Source: a virus (Duplodnaviria; Caudoviricetes). From it: a stretch of DNA of 64,000 nt. Each line of letters opens with the position of its first letter. Positions within the stretch are counted from its first letter, which is position 1. A program made the position numbers and the translations under genes. Below, piece after piece: positions 33,210 through 55,606 of this stretch. The stretch is from IMG/VR virus record IMGVR_UViG_3300025383_000009, one strand, 5' to 3'. The notes beneath the pieces are model-generated. The model was not told where the DNA came from. It saw nothing but the letters and a program-made list of their open reading frames with translations, and made no database searches.

Positions 33210-34474
33210 TGGCAACACCAATTGAATTTGTAGAGAAACAATGGTCAGAATGGCAAGAGGCCAATCCTCCATCATCTATTGAACATATTGACGAAGCAGA
33301 GCTCAAAGAAAAACTTATTTCTGATTTGACTTATGCATCTCAAATGGATGTTAAAGAATATACTCTCTATCAAAAATGGTGTGAAGTGAAAGAAAGATAT
33401 CCAACTCAAATGGTGTCTACACTATTTGGTGAAGAACTTCAAATGGTTAATCCAGAACAAGAAAAGATTATTAAAGATGTTAAAACAAACTTTTGGATGC
33501 CAGATAATCCAGATGATTATGAAAAGTTACAACCTATATTAGAATTATCTAATGGAGATTTGGCAGAAAGATGGAATGCTATTAGAACATTCTCATCAAC
33601 AATGAAAAATAATTCAAATATTGGCAGAAATCTATTCTATACAGTAAAAGATGAACCTACTGGCAAATATCTTGGTGTGATTTGTATCTCATCTGACTTT
33701 CTTGATTTGACACCAAGAGATAAAGCAATTGGTTGGTCTAGAGATGTTAAAACACAACAAGGCATGATTAATCATACAGCAATTGGTTCAACAATTGTTC
33801 CATTACAACCGCTTGGTTATAATTACATGGGTGGTAAGTTGCTTGCTTTATTATGTTTAGATGATAGAATTCAGAAAGATTGGAAAGAAAGATATGGTGA
33901 TACTCTTGTGGCAGTTACCACAACATCACTATATGGTAAAGCAAAAGCTGGTGGGTTATCTCAATATGATGGTCTAGAACATTGGAACGCTATGGGATTC
34001 TCATCTGGTTCTGTTGCCTTTGAACCTAAACGCACAACCTCAAAGATGATATATGATTGGATTAAAGAGAATTATCCACGCAAATACTTTGAATGGTGGG
34101 ATGCCAAAAATACTCAAGGTCTTCCACTTAAGCGTGACCATAAGAACCGTTCATTAAACTTTGCTTATCCAAAACTTGGTATACCTAAGCAACTTATTAG
34201 AACAGAGCATCAACGTGGTATTTACTTTGCACCACTCTATAACAATACAAACGAATATTTAAGAAAAGAAATTACTGACGACCAGTTGGTTAAATCATTT
34301 GATACTTCTACTAAAGCACTTACTGATATTTGGAAAACCAAATATGCTAAAGGTAGAATATCAATGCTCAAGAAGAAAGATAAGGTATCTAAAGAATCCT
34401 TATTCTATGATGACTTAATTTACCTCACTTGGGAAGAAACAAAAGAAAAATATCTTGTTCAAGTTGGTAGATAG
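33209..34474 (+). CDS. DUF4338/DruA-like protein
   Basis: YLGVICISSDF, GGKLLALL and TTTSLYG motifs recalled for DUF4338-like proteins; not verified by search. Confidence 0.5.
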   Translation: MATPIEFVEKQWSEWQEANPPSSIEHIDEAELKEKLISDLTYASQMDVKEYTLYQKWCEVKERYPTQMVSTLFGEELQMVNPEQEKIIKDVKTNFWMPDNPDDYEKLQPILELSNGDLAERWNAIRTFSSTMKNNSNIGRNLFYTVKDEPTGKYLGVICISSDFLDLTPRDKAIGWSRDVKTQQGMINHTAIGSTIVPLQPLGYNYMGGKLLALLCLDDRIQKDWKERYGDTLVAVTTTSLYGKAKAGGLSQYDGLEHWNAMGFSSGSVAFEPKRTTSKMIYDWIKENYPRKYFEWWDAKNTQGLPLKRDHKNRSLNFAYPKLGIPKQLIRTEHQRGIYFAPLYNNTNEYLRKEITDDQLVKSFDTSTKALTDIWKTKYAKGRISMLKKKDKVSKESLFYDDLIYLTWEETKEKYLVQVGR

Positions 34475-34552
34475 TAGTAAGGATATTAATTCAGTAGAAT
34501 TAGTATCTGGTAGTATTATTTTAGATGTTCTAATTTAATTAAGGAGAATTAT

Positions 34553-35605
34553 ATGAAAGCACTATTTGATGTGCAAAAATCTTTAGAAATGTGTCCTCCA
34601 AAATATCCAAAAGGAGTTAGCCACATTAAAAGAGTAGTTTTAAAAAGAGGCGTGGATGTTACTTATCCAAAAGATAAAAATCCAAGATTACTTAAAGTGG
34701 TAGTAGAAAGAATTCCAGAATTAAGAGATTCATTTCTTGTTAATGGATTTATTAATACTTGTTCGCCACCTACAGTAAAAGTTGATCCAAATAATAAAAA
34801 TAGATTTATTGGATTATCTGGTTACCATAGAGATGCAGCTGCAGAACAAGCTAAATGGGATACAATGATATATGATGTATTAGAATTTGATTCTCCAAAA
34901 GATGAAAGAATTCATAGAGTAACAACTAATCATCATTTAACGCCAGTTATACCAAATACACTGGATGATATTGTTAAGCAAGTTGTTGAATCTATATCTA
35001 GTAAAGAAATACCTAATGATGATAATGATGTAAAAGAACTTATATCAGTATTAGCAGCAGATAAAACTCCAAATAACCAAAAAACAATTTTTGAGAGAGT
35101 TAGAAGGCAAGTATCTTTTTCTGATACTTTGTTATGTTATCATGCCGGTACAGGTTCAAATTCAACCAAAACATTTGCTGAAAAAAATAATCTCCCATTT
35201 CAAGGAGAAGCAAGATATGGTAAAACAAATAGATTGGGTTATATCACAAGTCAAAAAACTCCAAAAACAACATTATATGAATCTAAAAATTTATATAAAG
35301 ATTATAATGGACAACAAATTGAATATTTTGCTTGGATCTCTAAACCAGAACCTGCTCCTAAATTATACAAACAAAGAAAACAATACAAACAAGCTTTTGA
35401 TAATTTTATCCGACTTGATTGTGAAGCAGAAGTTTTCCGTATGCAAAAACTAGGTTTAAAAGTAAAATTAGAAGATATTATTGCTAGCCATCCAATAAAA
35501 TTTATTGGATTTTTAGCACAAGATATTACACCTGATCCATTCAATAACGGCAAACCAAAAGAAAGTGGTGTTGTTGATATTAATGGAAAAGCGGTAGTAA
35601 TTTAA
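34553..35605 (+). CDS. Protein with ParB/Srx-like N-terminal domain
   Basis: PPTVKV...FIGLSGYHRDAAA matches the ParB-N GxHR motif. Confidence 0.5.
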   Translation: MKALFDVQKSLEMCPPKYPKGVSHIKRVVLKRGVDVTYPKDKNPRLLKVVVERIPELRDSFLVNGFINTCSPPTVKVDPNNKNRFIGLSGYHRDAAAEQAKWDTMIYDVLEFDSPKDERIHRVTTNHHLTPVIPNTLDDIVKQVVESISSKEIPNDDNDVKELISVLAADKTPNNQKTIFERVRRQVSFSDTLLCYHAGTGSNSTKTFAEKNNLPFQGEARYGKTNRLGYITSQKTPKTTLYESKNLYKDYNGQQIEYFAWISKPEPAPKLYKQRKQYKQAFDNFIRLDCEAEVFRMQKLGLKVKLEDIIASHPIKFIGFLAQDITPDPFNNGKPKESGVVDINGKAVVI

Positions 35606-35622
35606 ATATGCCACAAAATGTA

Positions 35623-35652
35623 TTGACTTATGTCATACATATATGATATGAT
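35623..35652 (+). promoter_or_regulatory. Sigma70-type promoter with extended -10
   Basis: TTGACT-18-TATGAT with TG upstream of the -10. Confidence 0.55.
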
Positions 35653-35705
35653 GTTATTTCTCGTTGTGATACGAGGTTTTTTATTAAATTATGAAGGAGT
35701 TATAT

Positions 35706-35972
35706 ATGAAGTTATCAGCAAAAGAAAAAATGTTAGCAGCCTTAAAACAAGAATCTGGCTACAACACATTCACAGTTAAGCAAGCACAACGCCGTTTTGG
35801 TATCAAAAATGTGTCTGCTCGTATTGACGAATTACGTCAAGAAGGTAATGTTATCTACACTAACACAAAGTTAGATGCTAATGGTAACAAAGTAAAATAC
35901 TATCGCTTAGGCACTCCATCTAAAGCACTTGTTCAAGCTGCTTTACGTGCTGGCTATTCTTTCACTGCTTAA
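35706..35972 (+). CDS. Small winged-HTH DNA-binding protein
   Basis: FTVKQAQRRFGIKNVSARIDELRQEG HTH pattern; GGAG RBS before ATG 35706. Confidence 0.7.
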   Translation: MKLSAKEKMLAALKQESGYNTFTVKQAQRRFGIKNVSARIDELRQEGNVIYTNTKLDANGNKVKYYRLGTPSKALVQAALRAGYSFTA

Positions 35973-41632: not shown

Positions 41633-41706
41633 TACCCTGTAGTGTAACGGTAGCATAAGAGCCTCCAAATCTCTCGGTCGCAGTTCAAATCTGTGCAGGG
41701 TAGCCA
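41633..41706 (+). tRNA. tRNA-Trp (CCA)
   Basis: Acceptor stem TACCCTG/CAGGGTA, G73, encoded CCA, anticodon loop CTCCAAA, T-loop TTCAAAT. Confidence 0.92.
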
Positions 41707-41732
41707 ATTAACTAAAAGAAAGAAGGTAAAAA

Positions 41733-42089
41733 ATGGACTCTTGGGGTTATCACTTAATTTTGGATGTAAGAGGTTGTGATATTGAAAAAGCAACTAATCC
41801 AGATTATATTCGTGATTTTACTAAAGAATTAGTTAAACGAATAGATATGAAACCTTATGGAGAACCCCAAGTGGTTCATTTTGCTGATAATACTGATTTA
41901 GCAGGTTGGACAGTATTACAACTAATTCATACCTCTAATATTACTGCTCATTTCTGTGATATTAATGGTGACTTGTATTTAGATGTGTTTTCATGTAAGG
42001 AATTCGATGGAGATGTCGTGGTTCAGTTCCTAAACGATTCTTTTAAACCATTGAGAATAACCTCTAGATATCTTTACAGAACAGCGTAG
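41733..42089 (+). CDS. speD: S-adenosylmethionine decarboxylase-family (pyruvoyl) protein
   Basis: GYHLILD..GC, TSNITAHF and YLDVFSCK motifs. Confidence 0.75.
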   Translation: MDSWGYHLILDVRGCDIEKATNPDYIRDFTKELVKRIDMKPYGEPQVVHFADNTDLAGWTVLQLIHTSNITAHFCDINGDLYLDVFSCKEFDGDVVVQFLNDSFKPLRITSRYLYRTA

Positions 42090-42739: not shown

Positions 42740-42807
42740 GCGGTGGGTTGTAGAACAAGCATTTCTTCCCGTTATGTTGCTTTGTGCAAGTCAAAGACAC
42801 CGCTCCA
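42740..42807 (+). ncRNA. Non-canonical tRNA-Gly(TCC)-like RNA
   Basis: GCGGTG/CACCGC acceptor stem, U73, encoded CCA, CTTTG/CAAAG T-stem with TGCAAGT loop, AGCAT/ATGTT arm with an 11-nt loop containing CT-TCC, rudimentary D-arm. Confidence 0.6.
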
Positions 42808-42813
42808 AATTCG

Positions 42814-43017
42814 ATGGCAGCTAAAAACGATATCACCGGCGATTCAATCTCAACTAAAGTAAATTCAAAAGAATATACTGATAATTGGGATTTGATTTGG
42901 GGTAAAAAGAAAAAAGAAAGTCGTATGGATATTATAGGCCAAAACGGTAATGACGGTTCACATTATGAGGAGATAGAAAATGGCAACAGCAGCGAGAGTC
43001 CATCCGGGCAAACGTAA
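42814..43017 (+). CDS. Small hypothetical protein (MAAKNDITGD type) with QNGNDG.HY motif
   Basis: ATG 42814 lies just after the tRNA-like CCA; the GTG 42784 start falls inside the RNA. Confidence 0.6.
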   Translation: MAAKNDITGDSISTKVNSKEYTDNWDLIWGKKKKESRMDIIGQNGNDGSHYEEIENGNSSESPSGQT

Positions 43018-43222
43018 AGCAGACCCAATGAAACATAAAACGGGCAAACCTAGATTAGGTCCACTAAATCTAAAACAATTAACAGACTTAATAGAAAAAA
43101 CTCAAGTCAAAAAAATCAAAGCAAAATTTCAAAGAGAATTGGAACGAAGAAATATTTTGGCAGTAAAGAAACAAGGTTTTAAAGTAAAGAAAAATCAAGT
43201 ATCAATTAATGAAAATCACTAG
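42980..43222 (+). CDS. Basic hypothetical protein
   Basis: GAGG RBS; 80 aa, K/R-rich. Confidence 0.6.
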   Translation: MATAARVHPGKRKADPMKHKTGKPRLGPLNLKQLTDLIEKTQVKKIKAKFQRELERRNILAVKKQGFKVKKNQVSINENH

Positions 43223-43243
43223 TAACATTTAAGTAATAAATCC

Positions 43244-43272
43244 TTTACTTTTCGTTACATTCCTTATATAAT
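43244..43272 (+). promoter_or_regulatory. Sigma70-type promoter of pqqA
   Basis: TTTACT-17-TATAAT. Confidence 0.7.
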
Positions 43273-43321
43273 AATGGTGTTAGAGTAGAAATTCTAACAT
43301 AACCTTTAAAGGAGATATACC

Positions 43322-43393
43322 ATGTGGACATCACCAGCTGCAACTGAAATGCGTTTTGGCTTCGAAGTTACTATGTATGTAATGAACAAGTAA
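43322..43393 (+). CDS. pqqA: Pyrroloquinoline quinone precursor peptide PqqA (23 aa), not in ORF track
   Basis: Translation MWTSPAATEMRFGFEVTMYVMNK with the conserved E15-X3-Y19 core; AAGGAG RBS 7 nt upstream. Confidence 0.95.
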   Translation: MWTSPAATEMRFGFEVTMYVMNK

Positions 43394-43415
43394 TTAACGA
43401 TTCAGTTTACTAAAT

Positions 43416-43446
43416 AAAACGAGAGCCTAAAAACTCTCGTTTTTTT
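43416..43446 (+). terminator. Rho-independent terminator of pqqA
   Basis: AAAACGAGAG-CCTAAAAA-CTCTCGTTTT plus T-run. Confidence 0.85.
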
Positions 43447-43467: not shown

Positions 43468-43764
43468 ATGAAATACCTTTTGATTGTTTTACTTTTAATA
43501 TTATCAACAGTAGCAATGTCAGAAGAATATTTGGTGATGTATTATAATCCTCATGTTAGGATTGTTTTATCAAAAGATACTTGTTTATTTAAAGAATTAG
43601 ATGGTAAGAGAGCGGCTGCTCAGAGGTCTGACGGACAGGTTCTTCAAGGTTGTTGGAATCCATCAAAAGACGGAAAACAAATCACAATTAAATGGCACAA
43701 TCCAGCAGTGCCTGATGATTCATCAACATTTGAAACAGAAAGATTTATTCCTACAACAGAATAA
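43468..43764 (+). CDS. Secreted hypothetical protein
   Basis: Signal peptide MKYLLIVLLLILSTVAMS; two Cys; AAGG RBS. Confidence 0.65.
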   Translation: MKYLLIVLLLILSTVAMSEEYLVMYYNPHVRIVLSKDTCLFKELDGKRAAAQRSDGQVLQGCWNPSKDGKQITIKWHNPAVPDDSSTFETERFIPTTE

Positions 43765-45768
43765 TTATTTTGAGGTGGCACGATAAGTGCCGTCCCAATT
43801 TGCAGGTAATCCTTCTTCCATTCTTTCTATCATTTTAGAATAGTATTCTTTTATGGTAACATCATCATTGTTTAACATTTTTCTAGCCCAATCAATTGCT
43901 TTATCCCAATTACCACGATAATATTCTTTTAGATATTCATTGTGCATGTAAGCAATAGTTTTGCCTACTGTATAAATTTTGACACCTTCTGTTTTACCTT
44001 TAACTGCTATGTTGTCTAATTCAACAACGCTATAATTATCTTTAACTAATTCAGCAGTTAATGGACCAAGAATAATCTTAACGCCATAGGGTTTAGATTG
44101 TCCTTCAAGTCTACTTGATAGGTTGACTGCATCTCCGAGGCAAGTGTAATCAAAACGATAGCGGCTACCCATATTACCAACAACAACACTACCAGTATTG
44201 AGCCCAATCCCCATTCCGAACGGCGGTATGCCTTCTTTTTCAATTTCTTTATTAAATTCATCTAAATCTCCTAACATTTCTAAAGCTGTTTTTACGGCAT
44301 TGATGGCATGGTCTTTATCATCAAGAGGTGCATTCCAAAAAGCCATCTGAGCATCACCAATATACTTATCTAGCGTTCCATTATTATCTAAAATCTTTTG
44401 TGTCATAGCAGTCATATATCGGTTCATGATAGAAGTTAAACCTTGAACGTCTTTACCATAGTGTTCTGATATTGTGGTGAATCCACGAACATCAGTAAAC
44501 ATAATAGTTAAATCTTTTGTTTCACCACCGAGTTTTAATAATTCTGGATTCTTTTGTAATTTTTCAACAAGTGCTGGTGATAGGTACGTTCCAAATTGTT
44601 TTTTGATTTGTAATTTTTGATTTAACTCACTTATAAATTTAACAGTATACGCATGAGCATAAACAAGACAAAGAGTAAGAATAGGAAAGATACAGTCCAC
44701 CAAATAATTGTAATGATTAAAGGTATAATGAGAACCATAATATAAAGAAACAATAATAGTAACAATAAAGATAATAGCATATTTCCACCTCGATAATAAA
44801 ATTAATAATATAGACATCATAATTGTGAATAAAAGTTCGGCACCAGTAGCCCAATCAGGTCGTTCTATATTGACATTATTAGCTAAGGTGCCGATTACAG
44901 CAGCCTGCACATCTTGAGGCCATACTGAACCTATACTTGTAGGTAAAGGATTGCCTAATCCTGAAGCAGTTACTCCAACAATAACTATTCCTTTGTTAAA
45001 GTTTTTTGGTAGATTTACTGCTGAAACAGAATTTGATTTTTGTGACCAATCAACCCATATACGACCAAGTGAGTCTGTTGCAATTGGTCTAAAACTTGGT
45101 ATTCGCATCTTCTCAACTCCGTTCTCATTAAGTTTGACTTGAAATGTTGAGTCACCAGACATAACCCTTAACACTTCTAAAGATACACTTGGGTAAATAT
45201 TACCATTATATCCAACGAACAAAGGTATTCTACGATTAACACCGTCTATTTCAGGTAATGTGTTTGTTATTCCAACTCCAGCAGCCGAAGATTCTAATGA
45301 CGGAATGTTAGCAATAATACCTGGATAATTTAAAATAGTATTGATGTTTTCTGAACCAATAATAACAGAACCAGGTTTCTTTGCTGTATTTTTATTTGAT
45401 TGTGAAGGAGAGTTTACTAAAATTACAGGATGGTCTTTGATTGTATCTTCTAATGCTTTGTCACCACCTAATCGGTCGGCTTCAGGCATCATTATATTCC
45501 ATACAACTAAACCGGCATTATGAGCATACAACTGAGCAATTAAATTGGCATATTGGTCACGTTTAAATGGCCATTGACCATAACGGTCTAAAGTGTTTTC
45601 ATCAATATTAACCGTATAGATATTATTAACGGTTTGAGTTTTGCCTGAAATGAGAGTGTCAAAATATCGTAATCGGATTGATTCGATAAAGTTAGAATTG
45701 GAAACAGCAATCACTAACGCTAAGGTTAGTAATGCTGTCCATGGTGATAATAGATATTTCTTAAACAA
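43765..45768 (-). CDS. CHASE2-domain membrane class III adenylate cyclase
   Basis: N-terminal TM, CHASE2 motif (IDENTLDRYGQWPF.R), three TM helices, FTDVRGFT, KYIGDA and FDYTCLGDAVNLSSRLEG. Probable start TTG 45768 (ORF track start 45822). Confidence 0.9.
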   Translation of the reverse strand: MFKKYLLSPWTALLTLALVIAVSNSNFIESIRLRYFDTLISGKTQTVNNIYTVNIDENTLDRYGQWPFKRDQYANLIAQLYAHNAGLVVWNIMMPEADRLGGDKALEDTIKDHPVILVNSPSQSNKNTAKKPGSVIIGSENINTILNYPGIIANIPSLESSAAGVGITNTLPEIDGVNRRIPLFVGYNGNIYPSVSLEVLRVMSGDSTFQVKLNENGVEKMRIPSFRPIATDSLGRIWVDWSQKSNSVSAVNLPKNFNKGIVIVGVTASGLGNPLPTSIGSVWPQDVQAAVIGTLANNVNIERPDWATGAELLFTIMMSILLILLSRWKYAIIFIVTIIVSLYYGSHYTFNHYNYLVDCIFPILTLCLVYAHAYTVKFISELNQKLQIKKQFGTYLSPALVEKLQKNPELLKLGGETKDLTIMFTDVRGFTTISEHYGKDVQGLTSIMNRYMTAMTQKILDNNGTLDKYIGDAQMAFWNAPLDDKDHAINAVKTALEMLGDLDEFNKEIEKEGIPPFGMGIGLNTGSVVVGNMGSRYRFDYTCLGDAVNLSSRLEGQSKPYGVKIILGPLTAELVKDNYSVVELDNIAVKGKTEGVKIYTVGKTIAYMHNEYLKEYYRGNWDKAIDWARKMLNNDDVTIKEYYSKMIERMEEGLPANWDGTYRATSK

Positions 45769-46009
45769 GTGATAATAAAGTTTGTGTTGCTGTAACCAAC
45801 CATCTATAGGCAGTTTCATCATCTGCTAAAGCTTGTTGATTTTTTACATCTACGATTTCTTTAACAAGAAATGAATACTCTTCGTCAGATAAATCACCTG
45901 CTTGATGTTGCTCGGTAATTTTTACCAACTCAGCAGATAATTTACCAAGAACACCTGGATGTCCTGATTTTTCTCTTAATTCTTCTAATATTTTCATCTT
46001 TGTCTCCAT
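45761..46009 (-). CDS. Small helical hypothetical protein
   Basis: 82-aa ORF overlapping both neighbours in the operon. Confidence 0.6.
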   Translation of the reverse strand: METKMKILEELREKSGHPGVLGKLSAELVKITEQHQAGDLSDEEYSFLVKEIVDVKNQQALADDETAYRWLVTATQTLLSLV

Positions 46010-46357: not shown

Positions 46358-47422
46358 TTAGTTGCTCTGTTGTTTAATAGTTATACTATTGGTTGTTTGG
46401 TCTTGATTTTTCAAATTTACTGTAACACCATTTTGTATGATATTTATATTATATCCTTTGTCTTTATCTATTAATACTGTAGCACTATCTTTAACCGTTC
46501 TTTGTATCATCCAATAAGTATTTTTATCAAAAATATACACTTGATTTAAAGAGTTATAACCTACCACAAAAGTTGCTAATATCATATTATCAAGAGCATT
46601 TGTTAAATAATTTGTGTCTAACGGATTTACATCTAATTCATTAAACCCAGCATAAGGGTCTTTAAAAACTTTTGCATCTAAAGCGTTTTGTTCTAATCCC
46701 GTAAATTCTAAAGCAGAACCTGATTTATTGATTATTTCAGCTTGTATTCTTTCAATGATTTGTTTTGGTGGTTTAACAATAAGCATATTATCAATAGATG
46801 ATTCAGATAATGCTAACAAAACAGGTTTTAATGGTTTAATTTCGGATGATTTTGTTACTGTAGCTTGAAACGCTTGGTTTAAAACTACTTTACCCATGGC
46901 TGTGCTAACTTCAATTGAACCAACTGAACCATCTGGATTTGGTAACAGAATAATAAGAGATTGTCCTATCTCATCTACAGTCATTGTGAATGCTGTACCA
47001 CGAACAGCAACTGAAGCGGTCGGAGTATTGATTGCTACATTTTTATTATTTTCGTGTGCGATATTACCAGATGCATAACGAACAGTTCCCATTGTTACAT
47101 TGAGAGCTAATTTACCTGCACCTTTTTTATTGGGGTCATAGACAAATTCGTCTATAAGAAGTTTTGAATGTTCTGTGACTTTTACTTGAGTTTTATCTTC
47201 AAATGTAATGCCTACTATTCCATTGCCTGTTTGAACAATATCATTACTATCTATATTTGATTTAGGTTTAGCCTCTATTACATCTTTATTTCTAGTAATA
47301 GAGGCTGGACCTTTTTGTTCAGTTATAGAACCAATTACCGCCCAACTAGTGTTGGATGACAGACACAGAAGCACCGCTACCAGTAAGGTTAACGATTGCA
47401 CTATTTGGGTTGGTCGTACCAT
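46358..47422 (-). CDS. FecR-domain periplasmic protein
   Basis: Signal peptide; D.VQTGNG...ITFED.TQV.V.EHSKL.IDEF and INTPTASVAVRGT FecR motifs. Confidence 0.85.
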   Translation of the reverse strand: MVRPTQIVQSLTLLVAVLLCLSSNTSWAVIGSITEQKGPASITRNKDVIEAKPKSNIDSNDIVQTGNGIVGITFEDKTQVKVTEHSKLLIDEFVYDPNKKGAGKLALNVTMGTVRYASGNIAHENNKNVAINTPTASVAVRGTAFTMTVDEIGQSLIILLPNPDGSVGSIEVSTAMGKVVLNQAFQATVTKSSEIKPLKPVLLALSESSIDNMLIVKPPKQIIERIQAEIINKSGSALEFTGLEQNALDAKVFKDPYAGFNELDVNPLDTNYLTNALDNMILATFVVGYNSLNQVYIFDKNTYWMIQRTVKDSATVLIDKDKGYNINIIQNGVTVNLKNQDQTTNSITIKQQSN

Positions 47423-48053
47423 CTTGAGTCACACTTATATTATTTGAATTACCAATGTTGTTAATACTAATACTATGGCCTGCACCAGCACCAGTACCAT
47501 TTGCACCTGTTTGGCTTGTGGTGATACTGTTATTGTTACCTGCAATTGCTATAGTATCTGTAACATTTTTACTGTTTATGGTACTTGTTATCGAATTACT
47601 ATTTCCTACAGTAGTGATGCTATAGTTATAATTACTCGAATCTCTCATTGTTCCTATATTCAATACAGAATTATTGTTACTACCTGAAAACGATAAATTT
47701 AAATTACCGTTATCAGTACCAAAGTTTCCGTAATTCAATACGATACCGTTACTATTACCATCTTGAGATATTACTCCTGTAGAACCACCACCAACAAAAT
47801 TACCTGTGATAGAGTTGTTCATACCGTTTTGTGTGATACCTAAATTAATACTGTTACCATCAATCACAAATGATGGACTACCAACATTAGTAGGATCTCC
47901 TACCGTGTTGTTAGAACCTGTTTGTGTTATGGTGACTGTAGAATTATCAGCGTTAGTTTGGTCAATATAAACACTATTACCTCCACTATCGACTGCCAAA
48001 GCACTAAATGCTAATAACAAACCCATCACAAAAGTGATAAGCTTACTTTTCAT
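47346..48053 (-). CDS. Curlin-like secreted beta-solenoid protein
   Basis: Sec signal MKSKLITFVMGLLLAFSALA followed by about 9 S/I-x-Q-x-G-x-x-N repeats; start ATG 48053 preferred. Confidence 0.75.
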   Translation of the reverse strand: MKSKLITFVMGLLLAFSALAVDSGGNSVYIDQTNADNSTVTITQTGSNNTVGDPTNVGSPSFVIDGNSINLGITQNGMNNSITGNFVGGGSTGVISQDGNSNGIVLNYGNFGTDNGNLNLSFSGSNNNSVLNIGTMRDSSNYNYSITTVGNSNSITSTINSKNVTDTIAIAGNNNSITTSQTGANGTGAGAGHSISINNIGNSNNISVTQDGTTNPNSAIVNLTGSGASVSVIQH

Positions 48054-48825
48054 TCTTTTTCTCCTTAAATTGCCACATACCTTTTTTTTCACCTTGAATA
48101 ATCAATTGCTCTACCGCCAGGTCTGTAGCTGCTTTTATGGCGTGTATAGAAGCCTCTGTTTGAGATATTCCTATCTCTTGTTCAAAATTTTGTGTTCCAT
48201 TATCAAAAAACTTAAATATAGCTACACCTGCTGTATAACTCAATATGGTTTTTTGAGCGTTTACTGTTAATAGCACTTCACCTGTTTGTGTGCTAATTGC
48301 TCTTATGCTTACAGTTACAACATCTTCTTGATATTGTGTGTCTGGTCCAATTCCTAACCAACGAACACCAATACCACCTGTTCTTATGTTTGTATCGTAA
48401 CTTATAATACCTCCTTCAATAATCATACCTGCATATAACATAGGTCTGATACCAGAAGGATCTTTTGCTTCATCTCTTGCTGAACGAATTAATTGTCTTT
48501 CTTTTAATAAATTATCAATACCAACTCGTTCTACTATTCTAAACCATTTTCCGTCACCAGCATCTTCTAATGACTTTAACAATACTGTTTCACCACCTTG
48601 TGTTACAGCGGATGATAACTTAGCAATCGTAGCAGAATCTTTTCTTTGACCAGTTTTATCAGCAAAGCTATAAACAGCTACAACTACTTTACCATTAACA
48701 GGTTCAGGTAACGGAGTCTTAGCCCATTTCATTGGCATAAGCTCTGGTTCTTTTTTAATAACATTCATTGGCGGTGTGCAACCAATTACTGCTATACACA
48801 TAAGTGCTATTAATATTTTTTTCAT
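48043..48825 (-). CDS. csgG: Curli secretion channel CsgG
   Basis: Lipobox VIGC; VAVYSFADKTGQRK, SSAVTQG, WFRIVER.GIDNLLKERQLIR and IIEGGIISYDTN motifs. Confidence 0.9.
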   Translation of the reverse strand: MKKILIALMCIAVIGCTPPMNVIKKEPELMPMKWAKTPLPEPVNGKVVVAVYSFADKTGQRKDSATIAKLSSAVTQGGETVLLKSLEDAGDGKWFRIVERVGIDNLLKERQLIRSARDEAKDPSGIRPMLYAGMIIEGGIISYDTNIRTGGIGVRWLGIGPDTQYQEDVVTVSIRAISTQTGEVLLTVNAQKTILSYTAGVAIFKFFDNGTQNFEQEIGISQTEASIHAIKAATDLAVEQLIIQGEKKGMWQFKEKKNEK

Positions 48826-48826
48826 A

Positions 48827-49264
48827 TTAGAAACTTAATGTTCCAATAGGAATACTAACTTGCGTCACATTACCATTTTGATCATTAACAGTCATGTTAA
48901 TCATGTCAGCTGTTTTGGTGTATGTAATAGTATTACCTTCAATGGTAACAGTTCCACTATTTTGTGGATTCTCACCAAACAGATTATTAATTAATTGTGT
49001 AGATAATTGAGCATAGACTCTGCTCTCAAAGTTAGTCAAGAACTTGGCTAATATAGTATTATTAGCGGCATTTGCTGCATCAATGGCTGCCTGTTTCTGT
49101 GCCGCTTCTATTGCTTGCTTGCGTGTGTATTCTGTGTTCTCGATAGTCTGTACATGAGAACTATATCCTATCCCAGAGAAGGAAGGAGATTTAAACTGAA
49201 ATACTTGTTCCGCATAAGCGTTACTGCTTATCAGTACTACTGCTAGGATCCTGGCGAGCTTCAT
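48827..49264 (-). CDS. csgF: Curli assembly protein CsgF
   Basis: Signal peptide then QVFQFKSPSFSG; FLTNFESRVYAQLS; adjacent to csgG. Confidence 0.85.
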   Translation of the reverse strand: MKLARILAVVLISSNAYAEQVFQFKSPSFSGIGYSSHVQTIENTEYTRKQAIEAAQKQAAIDAANAANNTILAKFLTNFESRVYAQLSTQLINNLFGENPQNSGTVTIEGNTITYTKTADMINMTVNDQNGNVTQVSIPIGTLSF

Positions 49265-51733: not shown

Positions 51734-52713
51734 TATTGGGCTCCTCCCCATACATCTTCCCATGAACCTTTAAGTGCACCCTTCGCATAGTCGGTTACAC
51801 GGTTCTCAAAGAAGTTACCATGAACTGGAGCATTGATCATCTCCTCAACCCATGGTAGCGGGTTCTTTTTAACTTTAAAAATACCTTTTAATCCGAGTGA
51901 GATCAAACGCCTATCAGCGATGTAACGGATGTATTGTTTAACATCTACTGGCTCTAACTCTCTCATGTGTGTACCTGAGAATGATAAATCAATAAACTTA
52001 TCTTCGAGTTGAACCATCTTCTCAGCTATAGTATATATGCGACCCTTCAAGTCATCATTCCATATCTCGTTGTTCTCTTTGATAAATGTTTTAAATAGCT
52101 TAATCATGTTCTCAGCGTGCATAGTTTCATCAACGATTGACCATGTAACGATCTGACCCATACCTTTCATCAAACCATGACGAGGAAAATTAAGCAGCAT
52201 GATAAAAGAACTAAAAAGCTGCATACCCTCCGTGAAAGCAGAGAATACTGCGATGTGCGTTGCAGTTGAAGATAAGTCACCGTTTTTCGAACTGAGTTCC
52301 GTAACATAGTCGTGTTTGTCCTTCATTTCTTGGTATTCAAGGAATTCATTATATGTAGATTCTGGCATACCTAACGTCTCAATCAAGTGAGAGTATGCTG
52401 CGATATGTAATGCTTCGCGAGCCGCAAAGCCCATAAGCATCATTCGAACTTCTGGTTGAGGGAAGTATGGTAGGTAGTTCTTAACATAACCGCCGGCAAC
52501 GTCGATGTCACCTTGCGTAAAGAACCTAAATATATTAGTAAGGAACTGCTTCTCTTCCTTTGTTAACTTCTTCTTCCAGTCCTTAACATCTTCTGCCATA
52601 GGAACTTCTGTATGTAACCAATGTGCCTGTTCATGTTTCAACCATGCGTCATATGCCCATGGATAATTGAATGGCTTAAAGTATTCTCTCGTATCGGTTA
52701 ATTTGTCTGCCAT
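51733..52713 (-). CDS. nrdB: Ribonucleotide reductase class Ia beta subunit
   Basis: FFTQGD, EALHIAAY, EGMQLF and DETMH di-iron motifs. Confidence 0.96.
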   Translation of the reverse strand: MADKLTDTREYFKPFNYPWAYDAWLKHEQAHWLHTEVPMAEDVKDWKKKLTKEEKQFLTNIFRFFTQGDIDVAGGYVKNYLPYFPQPEVRMMLMGFAAREALHIAAYSHLIETLGMPESTYNEFLEYQEMKDKHDYVTELSSKNGDLSSTATHIAVFSAFTEGMQLFSSFIMLLNFPRHGLMKGMGQIVTWSIVDETMHAENMIKLFKTFIKENNEIWNDDLKGRIYTIAEKMVQLEDKFIDLSFSGTHMRELEPVDVKQYIRYIADRRLISLGLKGIFKVKKNPLPWVEEMINAPVHGNFFENRVTDYAKGALKGSWEDVWGGAQ

Positions 52714-53255
52714 TAGATGTTCAACTCTTTCTTTAGTTCGTTAAATAAATTCATACAATGATCAAATCCTGCTATTGCTTCGTCTAATAGATCTATACTT
52801 AACTTAGAGTCTATGTATGCAATGCATGCAGGTCTATCTTCAAATGCATAAGCATGACTGGGTCCTGGTACTAACTTACCTATCATCTTACCACCGTATA
52901 AATCACCCATATGTCTTACATATACATGAGCCATGATCTGGTCTGGTCGACTATCAGCTAAAGATAATAGATGAAACATGTAATTCTTTGTACTTATATA
53001 AGGTGCCACGATAGTTCCACCTAACTCTGCAATATCAAGTGATATCTTATGAGTACGTCTAAGGTCTTCCATACCTTCAAACAGCCCATGAACTGTAGCG
53101 CATGCTTCTAGTGTAGAGTATATATGCCACATCTGTTGAAGGTATGTAAGATAGTGTTCCTTAGTTATCTTACCAGTGAACATATACTGGACAAAATCAG
53201 ATCCTTCGACCTCTTTGTGTTTTGCTCGAGTATGTTCTGTAAGTATCGTTGCCAT
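52713..53255 (-). CDS. Heme oxygenase
   Basis: T...H..VE...F, Y..YL, AHVYVRHMGDLYGG motifs. Confidence 0.88.
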   Translation of the reverse strand: MATILTEHTRAKHKEVEGSDFVQYMFTGKITKEHYLTYLQQMWHIYSTLEACATVHGLFEGMEDLRRTHKISLDIAELGGTIVAPYISTKNYMFHLLSLADSRPDQIMAHVYVRHMGDLYGGKMIGKLVPGPSHAYAFEDRPACIAYIDSKLSIDLLDEAIAGFDHCMNLFNELKKELNI

Positions 53256-53971
53256 TACTTAGCGATTGGTAAGTTAAACTTAATACCAGTTGCTTGCTCG
53301 ATTGCTGGTACAGTTGTTTGATACTTAGGCAAGTCTTTAACGGGTAATGCAGCGTTTGGCATTAACCATGCAGTAACTTTCTTACTATTCTTTTCATAAA
53401 CGATCTTATATAAACGAGTAGGGATACCTAAACCACTACCGATCTTTTGATAACCTTGATCCCAAATACCACCAGAGATAACATAGAAGTCTGTGTTTGG
53501 TGTTGCAACCCATTGACGTTCATATGTTTCTGCTTGTTTCCAAATACCACGATTGTTGTTAGCTACTTGTGGAACCATGTTTGATAAGTTAAAACTCTCA
53601 CTCATGATCGCATCGCTCTGTGTGTTGTTACCTGCTGGTGCCATATGACCGCGGTCATGTGTTTTACCAACGATAGCATAGTCAGCTAGGGATGCTGAAC
53701 AGTTAGGTGTTACTAATGCATCAGGGTGAAAATTATCTTTACGTTTTGCTGGTCCACTGATTGCTGCTTTTGTTAAATGCTCAAACACTGCTTCTGGAGC
53801 TTTAACATCACAACGATGGATTACTGCATAGTTTAAATGACATAACTCTTGGTCACCTGCTTTTGCTGTATATGTTGGTAATGCTGCTTCAAACTGACTG
53901 CAGTCTTTTAAACCTGCAAATGCTGCTGTTGTTGCTGATGCAAAAAATAATGCTGCTATAATCTTTTTCAT
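53255..53971 (-). CDS. Secreted DNA/RNA non-specific endonuclease (NucA/EndoG family)
   Basis: Signal peptide; DRGHMAPA, ESFNLSNMVPQ and NRGIW motifs. Confidence 0.92.
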   Translation of the reverse strand: MKKIIAALFFASATTAAFAGLKDCSQFEAALPTYTAKAGDQELCHLNYAVIHRCDVKAPEAVFEHLTKAAISGPAKRKDNFHPDALVTPNCSASLADYAIVGKTHDRGHMAPAGNNTQSDAIMSESFNLSNMVPQVANNNRGIWKQAETYERQWVATPNTDFYVISGGIWDQGYQKIGSGLGIPTRLYKIVYEKNSKKVTAWLMPNAALPVKDLPKYQTTVPAIEQATGIKFNLPIAK

Positions 53972-54243
53972 TTATTGTCCTCGGTTTCTAAATATATATT
54001 ACACTCACTTACTGTTATGTCTTTGATCTTCACTTTCTTACCATCAATCCTCACAAAGACATGAGGTTCAACGTACTTCTTCTTTAAAGATGCTGCATTG
54101 TTTGTTGCTAAAAAGATATTACGTCCAGCATCTTTTAATCTTTTAATCATTCCTTCGATATGCATGTTATGTCCAGACCCTATAGTTTTCGTAAGCACAT
54201 GGATTTTTTGGATCCAACTCTCTGTAGAATAAACTGTTGACAT
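53968..54243 (-). CDS. Hypothetical protein
   Basis: 91-aa ORF; start uncertain because it overlaps the hss 3' end. Confidence 0.45.
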   Translation of the reverse strand: MSTVYSTESWIQKIHVLTKTIGSGHNMHIEGMIKRLKDAGRNIFLATNNAASLKKKYVEPHVFVRIDGKKVKIKDITVSECNIYLETEDNK

Positions 54244-55606
54244 CTTTGAATGGTGTCCATTTTGTCTCGACGAATGGGACTTTACCTAGATATGGGTCAG
54301 CATACTTCAATACGAAGTCATATGGTATTGCTTCTGGCTCCACATAACCTTCATTAGGATTCTCTATTGCCCATATCATTGCACCTAACATTGATGCAAC
54401 AACCTGTAATGATGTAGCGTTCTCTCCTGGTATTAGTCTCCTTGCTTCCTCGATAGTTAACTGTGAACCGTGCCACATACCAAAGTCATCCCCCAATAAT
54501 AGCACACCTAATTCATCCATACCACCCACGATCTCATCCTTAGCGATGCGTAGTTTAGTATGTAGATCTAACTCTTTACCTCTCATCTCATGTACTGAAG
54601 CGATAGCTGCATCACATGGTTGATAGACGTAGTATACTGATGGCCTAAACGATTTATCTTTAGTTTCAAAGTATTCTGATATCGTTACAGCTTCTGAGTG
54701 TTGGATATGGAAGCCATTGTATTGACCACCTAATGGAACCCATGATCTTAGTAACACTGATACACCGGGTTGGAATAGGTATGCAGTGTTACCTTGTGCT
54801 TTACCATTCTCTGGGTTAGTATCTTCGTGTGTACCCCAACCCATCTCAGCGGGAGCTCTACCTTCTGCCCAAAAACCTTCACATGACCATGTATTTACAA
54901 ACTCATTCTTTTCTTTTGGTTCACCAAGGACTTGTGTGTCACGTTCTGCAACATGTACTACCTTAACACCAACCTTCTTCATCAACTGTGCCCAACCTTC
55001 TTTATCGGTTGGTACTACATACTTGATGCCTTTCTTTTCTGCTAACTTGAGTAACGCTCTCTTAGTAAGGTGTGTCACCAAACCAGGGTTTGCACCATGA
55101 GTTCCAACAACCGTTGCTGCACCTTTGTACTTCTCTGCCATAGCACGAACTTCTTTATGAGTATGGTATAGTGTACGTTCTGCTAGTTTAGGGATAGTCT
55201 CGTCTGGTTCATCTTCCCATCTTTCAAGAGATGTATTGATGTAATGAACACCATGTTTTAAACACCATTCAAGGATCTCAAGTGCACCGATGTTTAGTGA
55301 TACATCGATAACAAACCCACCTTCATCTACATACTTTGATAGTGTAGATTCTAAGTTATTCCTTAAGATCTCTTTCTTAATGTATGTGACTGCAGACTTA
55401 CCATTACGTTCTTTAAAAGTTTTTTCGTTCTCACCCTTCTCAAGCACTATAATGTTAGATGCTTCAGATGTGATGTGTCTAAGGATTATTGGTAAGATCG
55501 CTTGACCTACAGATCCATAACCTAAGATCAAGATCTTCCTACCATCAAACTTTACATACTTCTTATTTTTATAGTCTATGAACTTACTAAAATTTTCTAT
55601 TGCCAT
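54167..55606 (-). CDS. hss: Homospermidine synthase
   Basis: ILGYGSVGQ, HGANPGLV, HVAERDTQ, FVNTWSCEGF and NATSLQV motifs. Confidence 0.93.
   Translation of the reverse strand: MAIENFSKFIDYKNKKYVKFDGRKILILGYGSVGQAILPIILRHITSEASNIIVLEKGENEKTFKERNGKSAVTYIKKEILRNNLESTLSKYVDEGGFVIDVSLNIGALEILEWCLKHGVHYINTSLERWEDEPDETIPKLAERTLYHTHKEVRAMAEKYKGAATVVGTHGANPGLVTHLTKRALLKLAEKKGIKYVVPTDKEGWAQLMKKVGVKVVHVAERDTQVLGEPKEKNEFVNTWSCEGFWAEGRAPAEMGWGTHEDTNPENGKAQGNTAYLFQPGVSVLLRSWVPLGGQYNGFHIQHSEAVTISEYFETKDKSFRPSVYYVYQPCDAAIASVHEMRGKELDLHTKLRIAKDEIVGGMDELGVLLLGDDFGMWHGSQLTIEEARRLIPGENATSLQVVASMLGAMIWAIENPNEGYVEPEAIPYDFVLKYADPYLGKVPFVETKWTPFKDVNSLFYRELDPKNPCAYENYRVWT

Follow-up and report, generated by a model that had tools for sequence, protein, structure and literature searches.

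An intact pqqA gene with a host-type control region in a freshwater T4-like phage: a new example of a virus-encoded PQQ precursor

The DNA analyzed here, referred to as the window, is the whole 64,000-nucleotide stretch of IMG/VR record IMGVR_UViG_3300025383_000009, a genuine T4-like myovirus from freshwater. It encodes structural and packaging proteins (terminase large subunit, tail sheath, portal, scaffold and major head protein) as well as proteins for replication and regulation (UvsW/Dda-type helicase, SbcC-like nuclease, sliding clamp, gp44/gp62, RegA, Hsp20 and SpeD), and the genes for terminase, sheath, portal, major head protein, the gp44/gp62 clamp loader and RegA are located upstream of a pqqA gene at positions 43322-43393. 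On the other side of pqqA, that is downstream, genes for a CHASE2-cyclase, a FecR-like protein, CsgG, CsgF, curlin, a SegE-type endonuclease, both RNR subunits, heme oxygenase and primase follow. The GC content is ~32-39% over the window, except for 41% in the first 4 kb, and phage genes continue for ~10 kb past each end. Metagenome sequencing of freshwater or lakes covers the 5-kb region around pqqA nearly in full in at least 12 separate runs, and many independent contigs from JGI, ENA and Logan encode proteins from both window ends in an unchanged gene order. A megablast search with the 41-46 kb interval against GenBank phages gave no match. The small open reading frames next to pqqA (42784-43017, 42980-43222 and 43468-43764) matched no Pfam or PHROG family and showed no linkage to pqqA in host genomes. 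Homologues of the first of these, a 77-aa frame on the plus strand, are found close to pqqA in unrelated phage types (P19250A_0029, L122, L061 and L104), and it may travel with the pqqA cassette.

The pqqA coding sequence is located on the plus strand and consists of 23 codons and a TAA stop codon, with the translation MWTSPAATEMRFGFEVTMYVMNK. An earlier note, made from the letters of this DNA, had read the frame as PqqA with the residues to be cross-linked at E15 and Y19 and had proposed a search with two profiles. The translation proved to be exact and both profiles recognized the peptide well above their cut-offs, with 37.9 bits for PF08042 (gathering threshold 21.1) and 34.4 bits for the NCBIfam equivalog TIGR02107 (cut-off 20). 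With two curated models passed, the sequence identifies the frame as a bona fide PqqA. The ExxxY motif reads E15-V-T-M-Y19, and the E/Y pair is invariant across all collected copies. Furthermore, the length of 23 amino acids falls inside the family range of ~20-40, and the N-terminal W-x-x-P is present (W2 and P5). This leader is the part of PqqA that is recognized by PqqD. A comparison with the dominant host forms of PqqA revealed 22 of 23 identical residues; the only difference is at the variable residue 4, which is S in the window and T or K in the dominant host forms. Judged from this identity, binding of the phage peptide by the PqqD of the host is near certain. Among the matches listed, 4 of 120 viral contigs encode the exact S4 peptide, whereas all 129 cellular copies have another sequence.

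The gene is embedded in a short transcription unit, whose elements had largely been pointed out before and were all recovered by scanning and RNA folding. In detail, these are a sigma-70-type promoter on the plus strand with a -35 element TTTACT at 43244-43249, a 17-nt spacer and a -10 element TATAAT at 43267-43272 (10 of 12 positions matching), a stem-loop where the transcript is predicted to begin (43278-43299), with 9 bp in the stem and 4 nt in the loop, a ribosome binding site AAGGAG 7 nt before the ATG (43309-43314) and an intrinsic terminator (43416-43446), which consists of a 10-bp stem (43416-43443) with an 8-nt loop followed by seven T. As promoter-like hexamer pairs occur at chance frequency in this AT-rich DNA (17 found versus 14.5 ± 3.8 in shuffles), the hexamers alone are weak evidence for a promoter; the promoter call is supported because of the host-type architecture described below. 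The leader folds more stably than shuffled sequences (z = -3.4), and so does the whole unit of 173 nt (z = -2.95). Structured leaders (z < -1.5) are a feature of ~41% of the host and 42% of the viral pqqA units, and the 5' stem-loop would probably stabilize the mRNA. A sequence resembling a ribosome binding site is present in 120 of 120 viral and 127 of 128 cellular copies among the matches listed. The terminator is the strongest of three candidates in 3 kb, and the hairpin is also predicted by RNA folding. The proposed monocistronic nature of the unit is in line with the T4-like relatives, in which 16 of 19 have a hairpin and a T-run 3' of the pqqA stop codon. The sequences of these hairpins are unrelated to each other, which indicates that the monocistronic layout is conserved as an architecture. 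In metatranscriptome contigs only the coding sequence was matched, at 90-95% identity and with unrelated flanks, so that these RNAs derive from other pqqA genes and a transcript of the window copy was not seen among them.

The pqqA unit begins further upstream than the earlier note had placed it. A dyad ATTAATGAAAATCACTAGTA (TAATGAAAATCACTA) is located at 43205-43224 on the plus strand, 117 nt before the ATG, with the core TAATGA-AAA-TCACTA, and it overlaps the stop codon of the open reading frame 42980-43222. We refer to this element as a host-type pqq box, as it scores 18.1 bits on a weight matrix made from 50 host sites and is the sole site with at least this score on both strands of the entire 64 kb. 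In the host genomes, the dyad of pqqA is located ~100-140 nt before the ATG and occurs in forms such as TCTCATGA-AAA-TCATGAG and TCTAATGA-AAA-TCATTAGA. A search of five host genomes with the exact 15-mer T(C/A)ATGA-N3-TCA(T/C)(G/T)A yielded 13 distinct sites, and the reversed control yielded essentially none. Nine of these sites are positioned 97-118 nt upstream of pqqA, one is found upstream of pqqB and one between a xoxF-like gene and the next gene. In the five genomes, the exact dyad is nearly restricted to such pqqA, pqqB and xox upstream regions. Among the matches listed, the matrix score exceeds the 95th percentile of shuffles in 86% of 119 distinct host upstream regions and in 35% of 111 viral upstream regions, with 5% expected. 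The dyad is thus recognizable in only about a third of the viral copies, and regulation of the host type is not universal among them.

Anchoring 75 host regions on the dyad uncovered a second conserved element directly after it, which is T-rich or resembles a half-site, and a TAnnAT box that resembles a -10 element and covers offsets 62-67, counted from the first position of the dyad 20-mer. The TATAAT of the window is located at offsets 62-67 as well and is therefore in the exact register of the host promoters. The -35 element TTTACT also occurs in pqqA copies of Methylotenera-type hosts. DNA similarity between the window and other copies in blastn is restricted to 43304-43396, which covers the ribosome binding site and the coding sequence, and from this result alone promoter and flanks could have been taken as the phage's own. 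This view was overturned by the host-type dyad and the -10 box in register. From the sequence, we rather assume that capture of the cassette included its control region.

With its center near -65 from the predicted transcription start, the dyad has a position typical of an activator site, and it would be the binding site of a dimeric host regulator of pqq genes or methanol oxidation. The T4 late promoter motif TATAAATA was found neither upstream of the window pqqA nor in 18 of 19 T4-like relatives. In our view the chances are even that the dyad is a pqq-specific operator of the Methylophilaceae, standing in register with the phage promoter, and that it wires PqqA output into the methanol/PQQ regulon of the host and not into an early/middle/late program of the T4 type. 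The earlier note had expected a boost early in infection, a timing read from nothing more than the presence of a sigma-70-type promoter. Because the control region resembles the host pqqA promoter with its upstream dyad, the timing of pqqA may be set by the host pqq regulator rather than by the phage program. No description of the dyad was found in the searchable literature; within the locus it is only this host-type pqq box, standing in register with the phage promoter, for which we found no earlier description. As a conserved element, it offers a handle for finding the regulator of PQQ supply in Methylophilaceae.

To describe the distribution of the gene, the peptide was compared by tblastn with 50,697 GenBank phage records, of which 13 matched. 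Matches at 73-96% identity were obtained for P19250A, MEP301, Venkman, MEP401, MEP402, four Melnitz isolates and a Manatee Spring podovirus; of the others, two come from fragments of a single Acinetobacter phage and one is a marginal match in an E. coli phage. The copies of the methylophages and of the Manatee Spring podovirus are intact frames of 23-24 codons with a ribosome binding site. Every cultured Methylophilales phage returned by this search carries an intact pqqA, and the cultured phages with pqqA all infect Methylophilales. In the GenBank records of these phages pqqA is unannotated or hidden under a "hypothetical protein" on the wrong strand, and the suspicion that annotation pipelines miss the gene was usually borne out in the deposited methylophage records. 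This amounts to a systematic annotation gap, as pqqA is omitted from most deposited methylophage genomes. In all four records of Melnitz, MelnitzEXVC044M_152 is annotated on the strand opposite to pqqA and overlaps its frame (L001, MZ577097.1 76100-76205). This annotation is probably a gene-calling error, and a tRNA-Leu starts 14 nt after pqqA in this phage.

For metagenomic contigs we used a degenerate back-translation of the 11-residue core EMRFGFEVTMY, which was found in at least 120 IMG/VR contigs. As this pattern forces the core, conservation of the 11 residues in these matches is not evidence, and we considered the pattern-free positions instead. All 120 matches listed contain an intact frame of 23-25 aa. 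In the 120 viral copies listed, W2 (single codon) and P5 (CCA, CCT or CCG) are kept in all, N22 in 118 (AAC 64, AAT 54), T3 in 117 (ACA 77, ACT 39) and K23 in 115 (AAG 74, AAA 41). That these positions are kept despite abundant synonymous variation points to purifying selection on the peptide. Searching with the window open reading frames by tblastn, we found ~20 T4-like contigs that keep pqqA near gp44-gp62-regA-hsp20 or beside the major capsid gene, even though their core proteins are only 30-70% identical to those of the window. The closest relative, L265, shares 92.7% nucleotide identity over 6.7 kb and has the pqqA unit at the same place. Between the two, 6 of 72 positions of the coding sequence differ, four of them synonymous in addition to the S4/K4 codon, and the leader from the dyad to the ribosome binding site differs at 1 of 110 positions compared to an average of 7.3%. 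Read from sequence, this comparison is consistent with constraint. A gene-conversion patch over the coding sequence (8/57 versus 5/272 differences, p = 3e-4) was considered and rejected; the coding sequence is at background, because divergence between the two phages is a mosaic with 0-33 differences per 100 nt and 7.3% overall. The gene has the sequence properties of an auxiliary metabolic gene, being host-derived, located inside a viral genome with hallmark genes on both sides, and varying mostly at synonymous positions.

The same core pattern is present in at least 120 contigs of cellular genomes, which among the matches listed are almost all from Methylophilaceae, including Methylotenera, Methylophilus, Methylopumilus, Methylobacillus, Methylovorus and other MAGs. 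The window pqqA is, by its sequence, of the Methylophilaceae type, and together with the hosts of the cultured carriers this bears out the methylotroph host that had been predicted. Because the peptide core is essentially confined to Methylophilaceae, it could also serve as a marker that assigns host-less viral contigs to methylotrophs. In each of five host-type genomes, two of them streamlined to 1.2-1.3 Mb, a single pqqE passes the curated cut-off and pqqA is present in 3-7 copies at scattered positions. The pqqBCDE operon of Ca. Methylopumilus is not flanked by a pqqA. The copy numbers are in line with the 3-12 pqqA copies described for Methylophilaceae, in which the other pqq genes are single-copy (Beck et al., 2014, PMC4109929). 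The expression of orphan pqqA copies and of pqqE increases along with PQQ output in a different methylotroph (PMC9851590). As pqqBCDE is present in the host family and often unlinked from pqqA, the partners of a phage-encoded PqqA would come in trans. The orphan pqqA units of Methylophilaceae are among the closest counterparts of the window unit, as they are stand-alone and monocistronic and share dyad, -10 offset, leader, ribosome binding site, 23 codons and terminator; unlike the phage unit they are chromosomal, and the S4 peptide is not among the cellular copies listed.

The presence of pqqBCDE in the same organism is a further mark of PqqA family members, and no such set was identified within the window, its ~10 kb flanks or the relatives. 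Homologues of pqqB, C, D and E were found neither in the window nor in any of 126 phage or viral loci, and the search of ~10 kb beyond each window end likewise returned none. Furthermore, pqqE was not found in five complete cultured methylophages and pqqB was not found in Melnitz or four long viral contigs. Thus, the idea that the phage supplies only PqqA stands for the window, its ~10 kb flanks and the complete related phages. In the known pathway, PqqA is bound by PqqD, its Glu and Tyr are cross-linked by the radical-SAM enzyme PqqE and the product is matured by PqqB/PqqC, with one peptide consumed per PQQ (PMC7678222, PMC9851590).

We consider it likely that the window carries a functional and selectively maintained phage pqqA, acquired from the host as a cassette, which tops up the PQQ precursor during infection. 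In this scenario the cassette would have been taken whole from a host chromosome, including dyad, promoter, structured leader, ribosome binding site, coding sequence and terminator. Host RNA polymerase would transcribe it, probably under a putative regulator shared with host pqqA and pqqB, and the phage peptide would be bound by host PqqD and cross-linked between E15 and Y19 by host PqqE. Host PqqB/C, together with a protease, would then mature the cross-linked peptide to PQQ. The extra precursor could sustain PQQ-dependent methanol oxidation by XoxF/MxaF and in this way the energy supply during infection. That a phage copy would add to the precursor supply seems feasible, because peptide and PQQ stand in a ratio of 1:1 and the hosts already multiply pqqA to 3-12 copies for one pqqBCDE. 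What the sequences show is the identity, intactness and conservation of the gene, its place in a phage, its host-type cis elements and a neighborhood free of pqqB-E; transcription of the unit, processing of its peptide by host enzymes and a benefit to the phage are inferred.

It is also conceivable that pqqA mainly feeds a XoxF encoded elsewhere in the phage genome, so that both genes form a viral methanol-oxidation module. Such pairs exist: the T4-like relative G006 (IMGVR_UViG_3300025120_009955, with locus L257 at 34238-35860), a 72-kb contig that has the neighborhood of pqqA and CHASE2-cyclase in common with the window, encodes a full-length XoxF-type methanol dehydrogenase in addition to pqqA, and the Lake Baikal population VP_266 carries both genes as well (PMC7678222). 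The XoxF of G006 is a 628-aa open frame with 89% identity to a Methylophilus enzyme. Neither the 64-kb window nor ~10 kb past either end contains a candidate of the size of XoxF, and the complete Melnitz genome has pqqA but XoxF was not found in it. We therefore regard a XoxF module as rather unlikely for the window phage.

The coding sequence shares 85-93% DNA identity with host copies and its control region is host-like, as would be expected if pqqA were recently captured host DNA that travels as a neutral passenger with no function for the phage. This is very unlikely, as all >125 phage or viral copies, from myo-, sipho- and podovirus backgrounds alike, are intact and differ mostly at synonymous positions, and as the gene is kept in T4-like lineages with strongly diverged core proteins (30-70% identity). 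We give hardly any weight to a decoy, in which the peptide ties up host PqqD/PqqE or the dyad titrates the host pqq regulator and PQQ synthesis of the host is shut down. No observation speaks directly for it, although a multi-copy phage genome would bring many copies of the dyad, and the loss of the cross-linking residues would be expected, whereas the phage peptide retains E15 and Y19 as well as the W-x-x-P leader and the C-terminal residues, all without change from functional host peptides; moreover, a shutdown of energy metabolism would be no help to a lytic phage of a slow-growing oligotroph. Finally, an assembly chimera that wrongly joins a piece of host pqqA to phage sequence, which the earlier note had named as a possible objection, is excluded for practical purposes by the near-complete 5-kb region in independent runs, the kept gene order of both window ends on independent contigs, the pqqA unit at the same place in L265 and the uniform GC content.

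The idea of a phage-encoded pqqA is not new, as it was reported in 2020 for the Lake Baikal population VP_266, a T4-like phage population with 35% GC that is predicted to infect Methylophilaceae and carries PqqA and methanol dehydrogenase, and a role of PqqA in sustaining methanol oxidation was proposed in the same paper (Coutinho et al., 2020, Microbiome 8:163, PMC7678222). The window is a well-supported new example. Compared by description only, VP_266 is similar to the window in its T4-like character, the ~35% GC, the freshwater origin, the predicted Methylophilaceae host and a pqqA that is present without pqqB-E, and it differs by carrying a methanol dehydrogenase and a peptide deformylase; promoter, dyad, leader, terminator and the frequency in cultured phages are not part of that paper (PMC7678222). 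A 2026 survey of reservoir sediments listed pqqA, pqqD and pqqE among viral phosphate-solubilizing genes (PMC13188868). Our literature search returned no further report of a virus-encoded pqqA besides these two, and the publications on Melnitz and MEP40x are silent on a phage pqqA. The cultured Methylophilales phages resemble the window in their intact peptide (73-96% identical), the ribosome binding site and the lack of pqqE in the genomes searched, and differ in morphotype and in the genome position of the gene. The dyad is recognizable in Melnitz, Venkman and the Manatee Spring phage and weak in the other cultured phages.

In lakes and coastal seas, Methylophilaceae such as LD28, OM43 and Methylotenera play a major part in the consumption of methanol. 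If the proposed supply of precursor by the phage holds true, a viral gene of 72 nt that maintains a key cofactor would link phage infection to C1 carbon turnover.

Some further genes of the window deserve mention. The pqqA unit is adjoined on the minus strand (43765-45822) by a gene for a protein of 685 aa, in which a CHASE2 sensor is joined to an adenylate/guanylate cyclase domain. The match to phrog_35576 covers the full length, and at least 574 relatives were counted in IMG/VR contigs, some of which reach 150-340 kb. As pqqA is found near this cyclase in only 2 of the best 80 loci, it appears to be a widespread phage signaling gene that is independent of methylotrophy. It is followed on the same strand (46358-49264) by a FecR-like gene (phrog_37870) and genes for a curlin-repeat protein, CsgG and CsgF, a curli secretion set that resembles the one reported for Melnitz and pelagimyophages. 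Additional cargo at 41633-42089 and 52713-55606 comprises a tRNA-Trp, SpeD, heme oxygenase, a non-specific endonuclease and a saccharopine-dehydrogenase-like enzyme with a fold of the homospermidine/carboxyspermidine type, which suggests an auxiliary metabolism related to polyamines.
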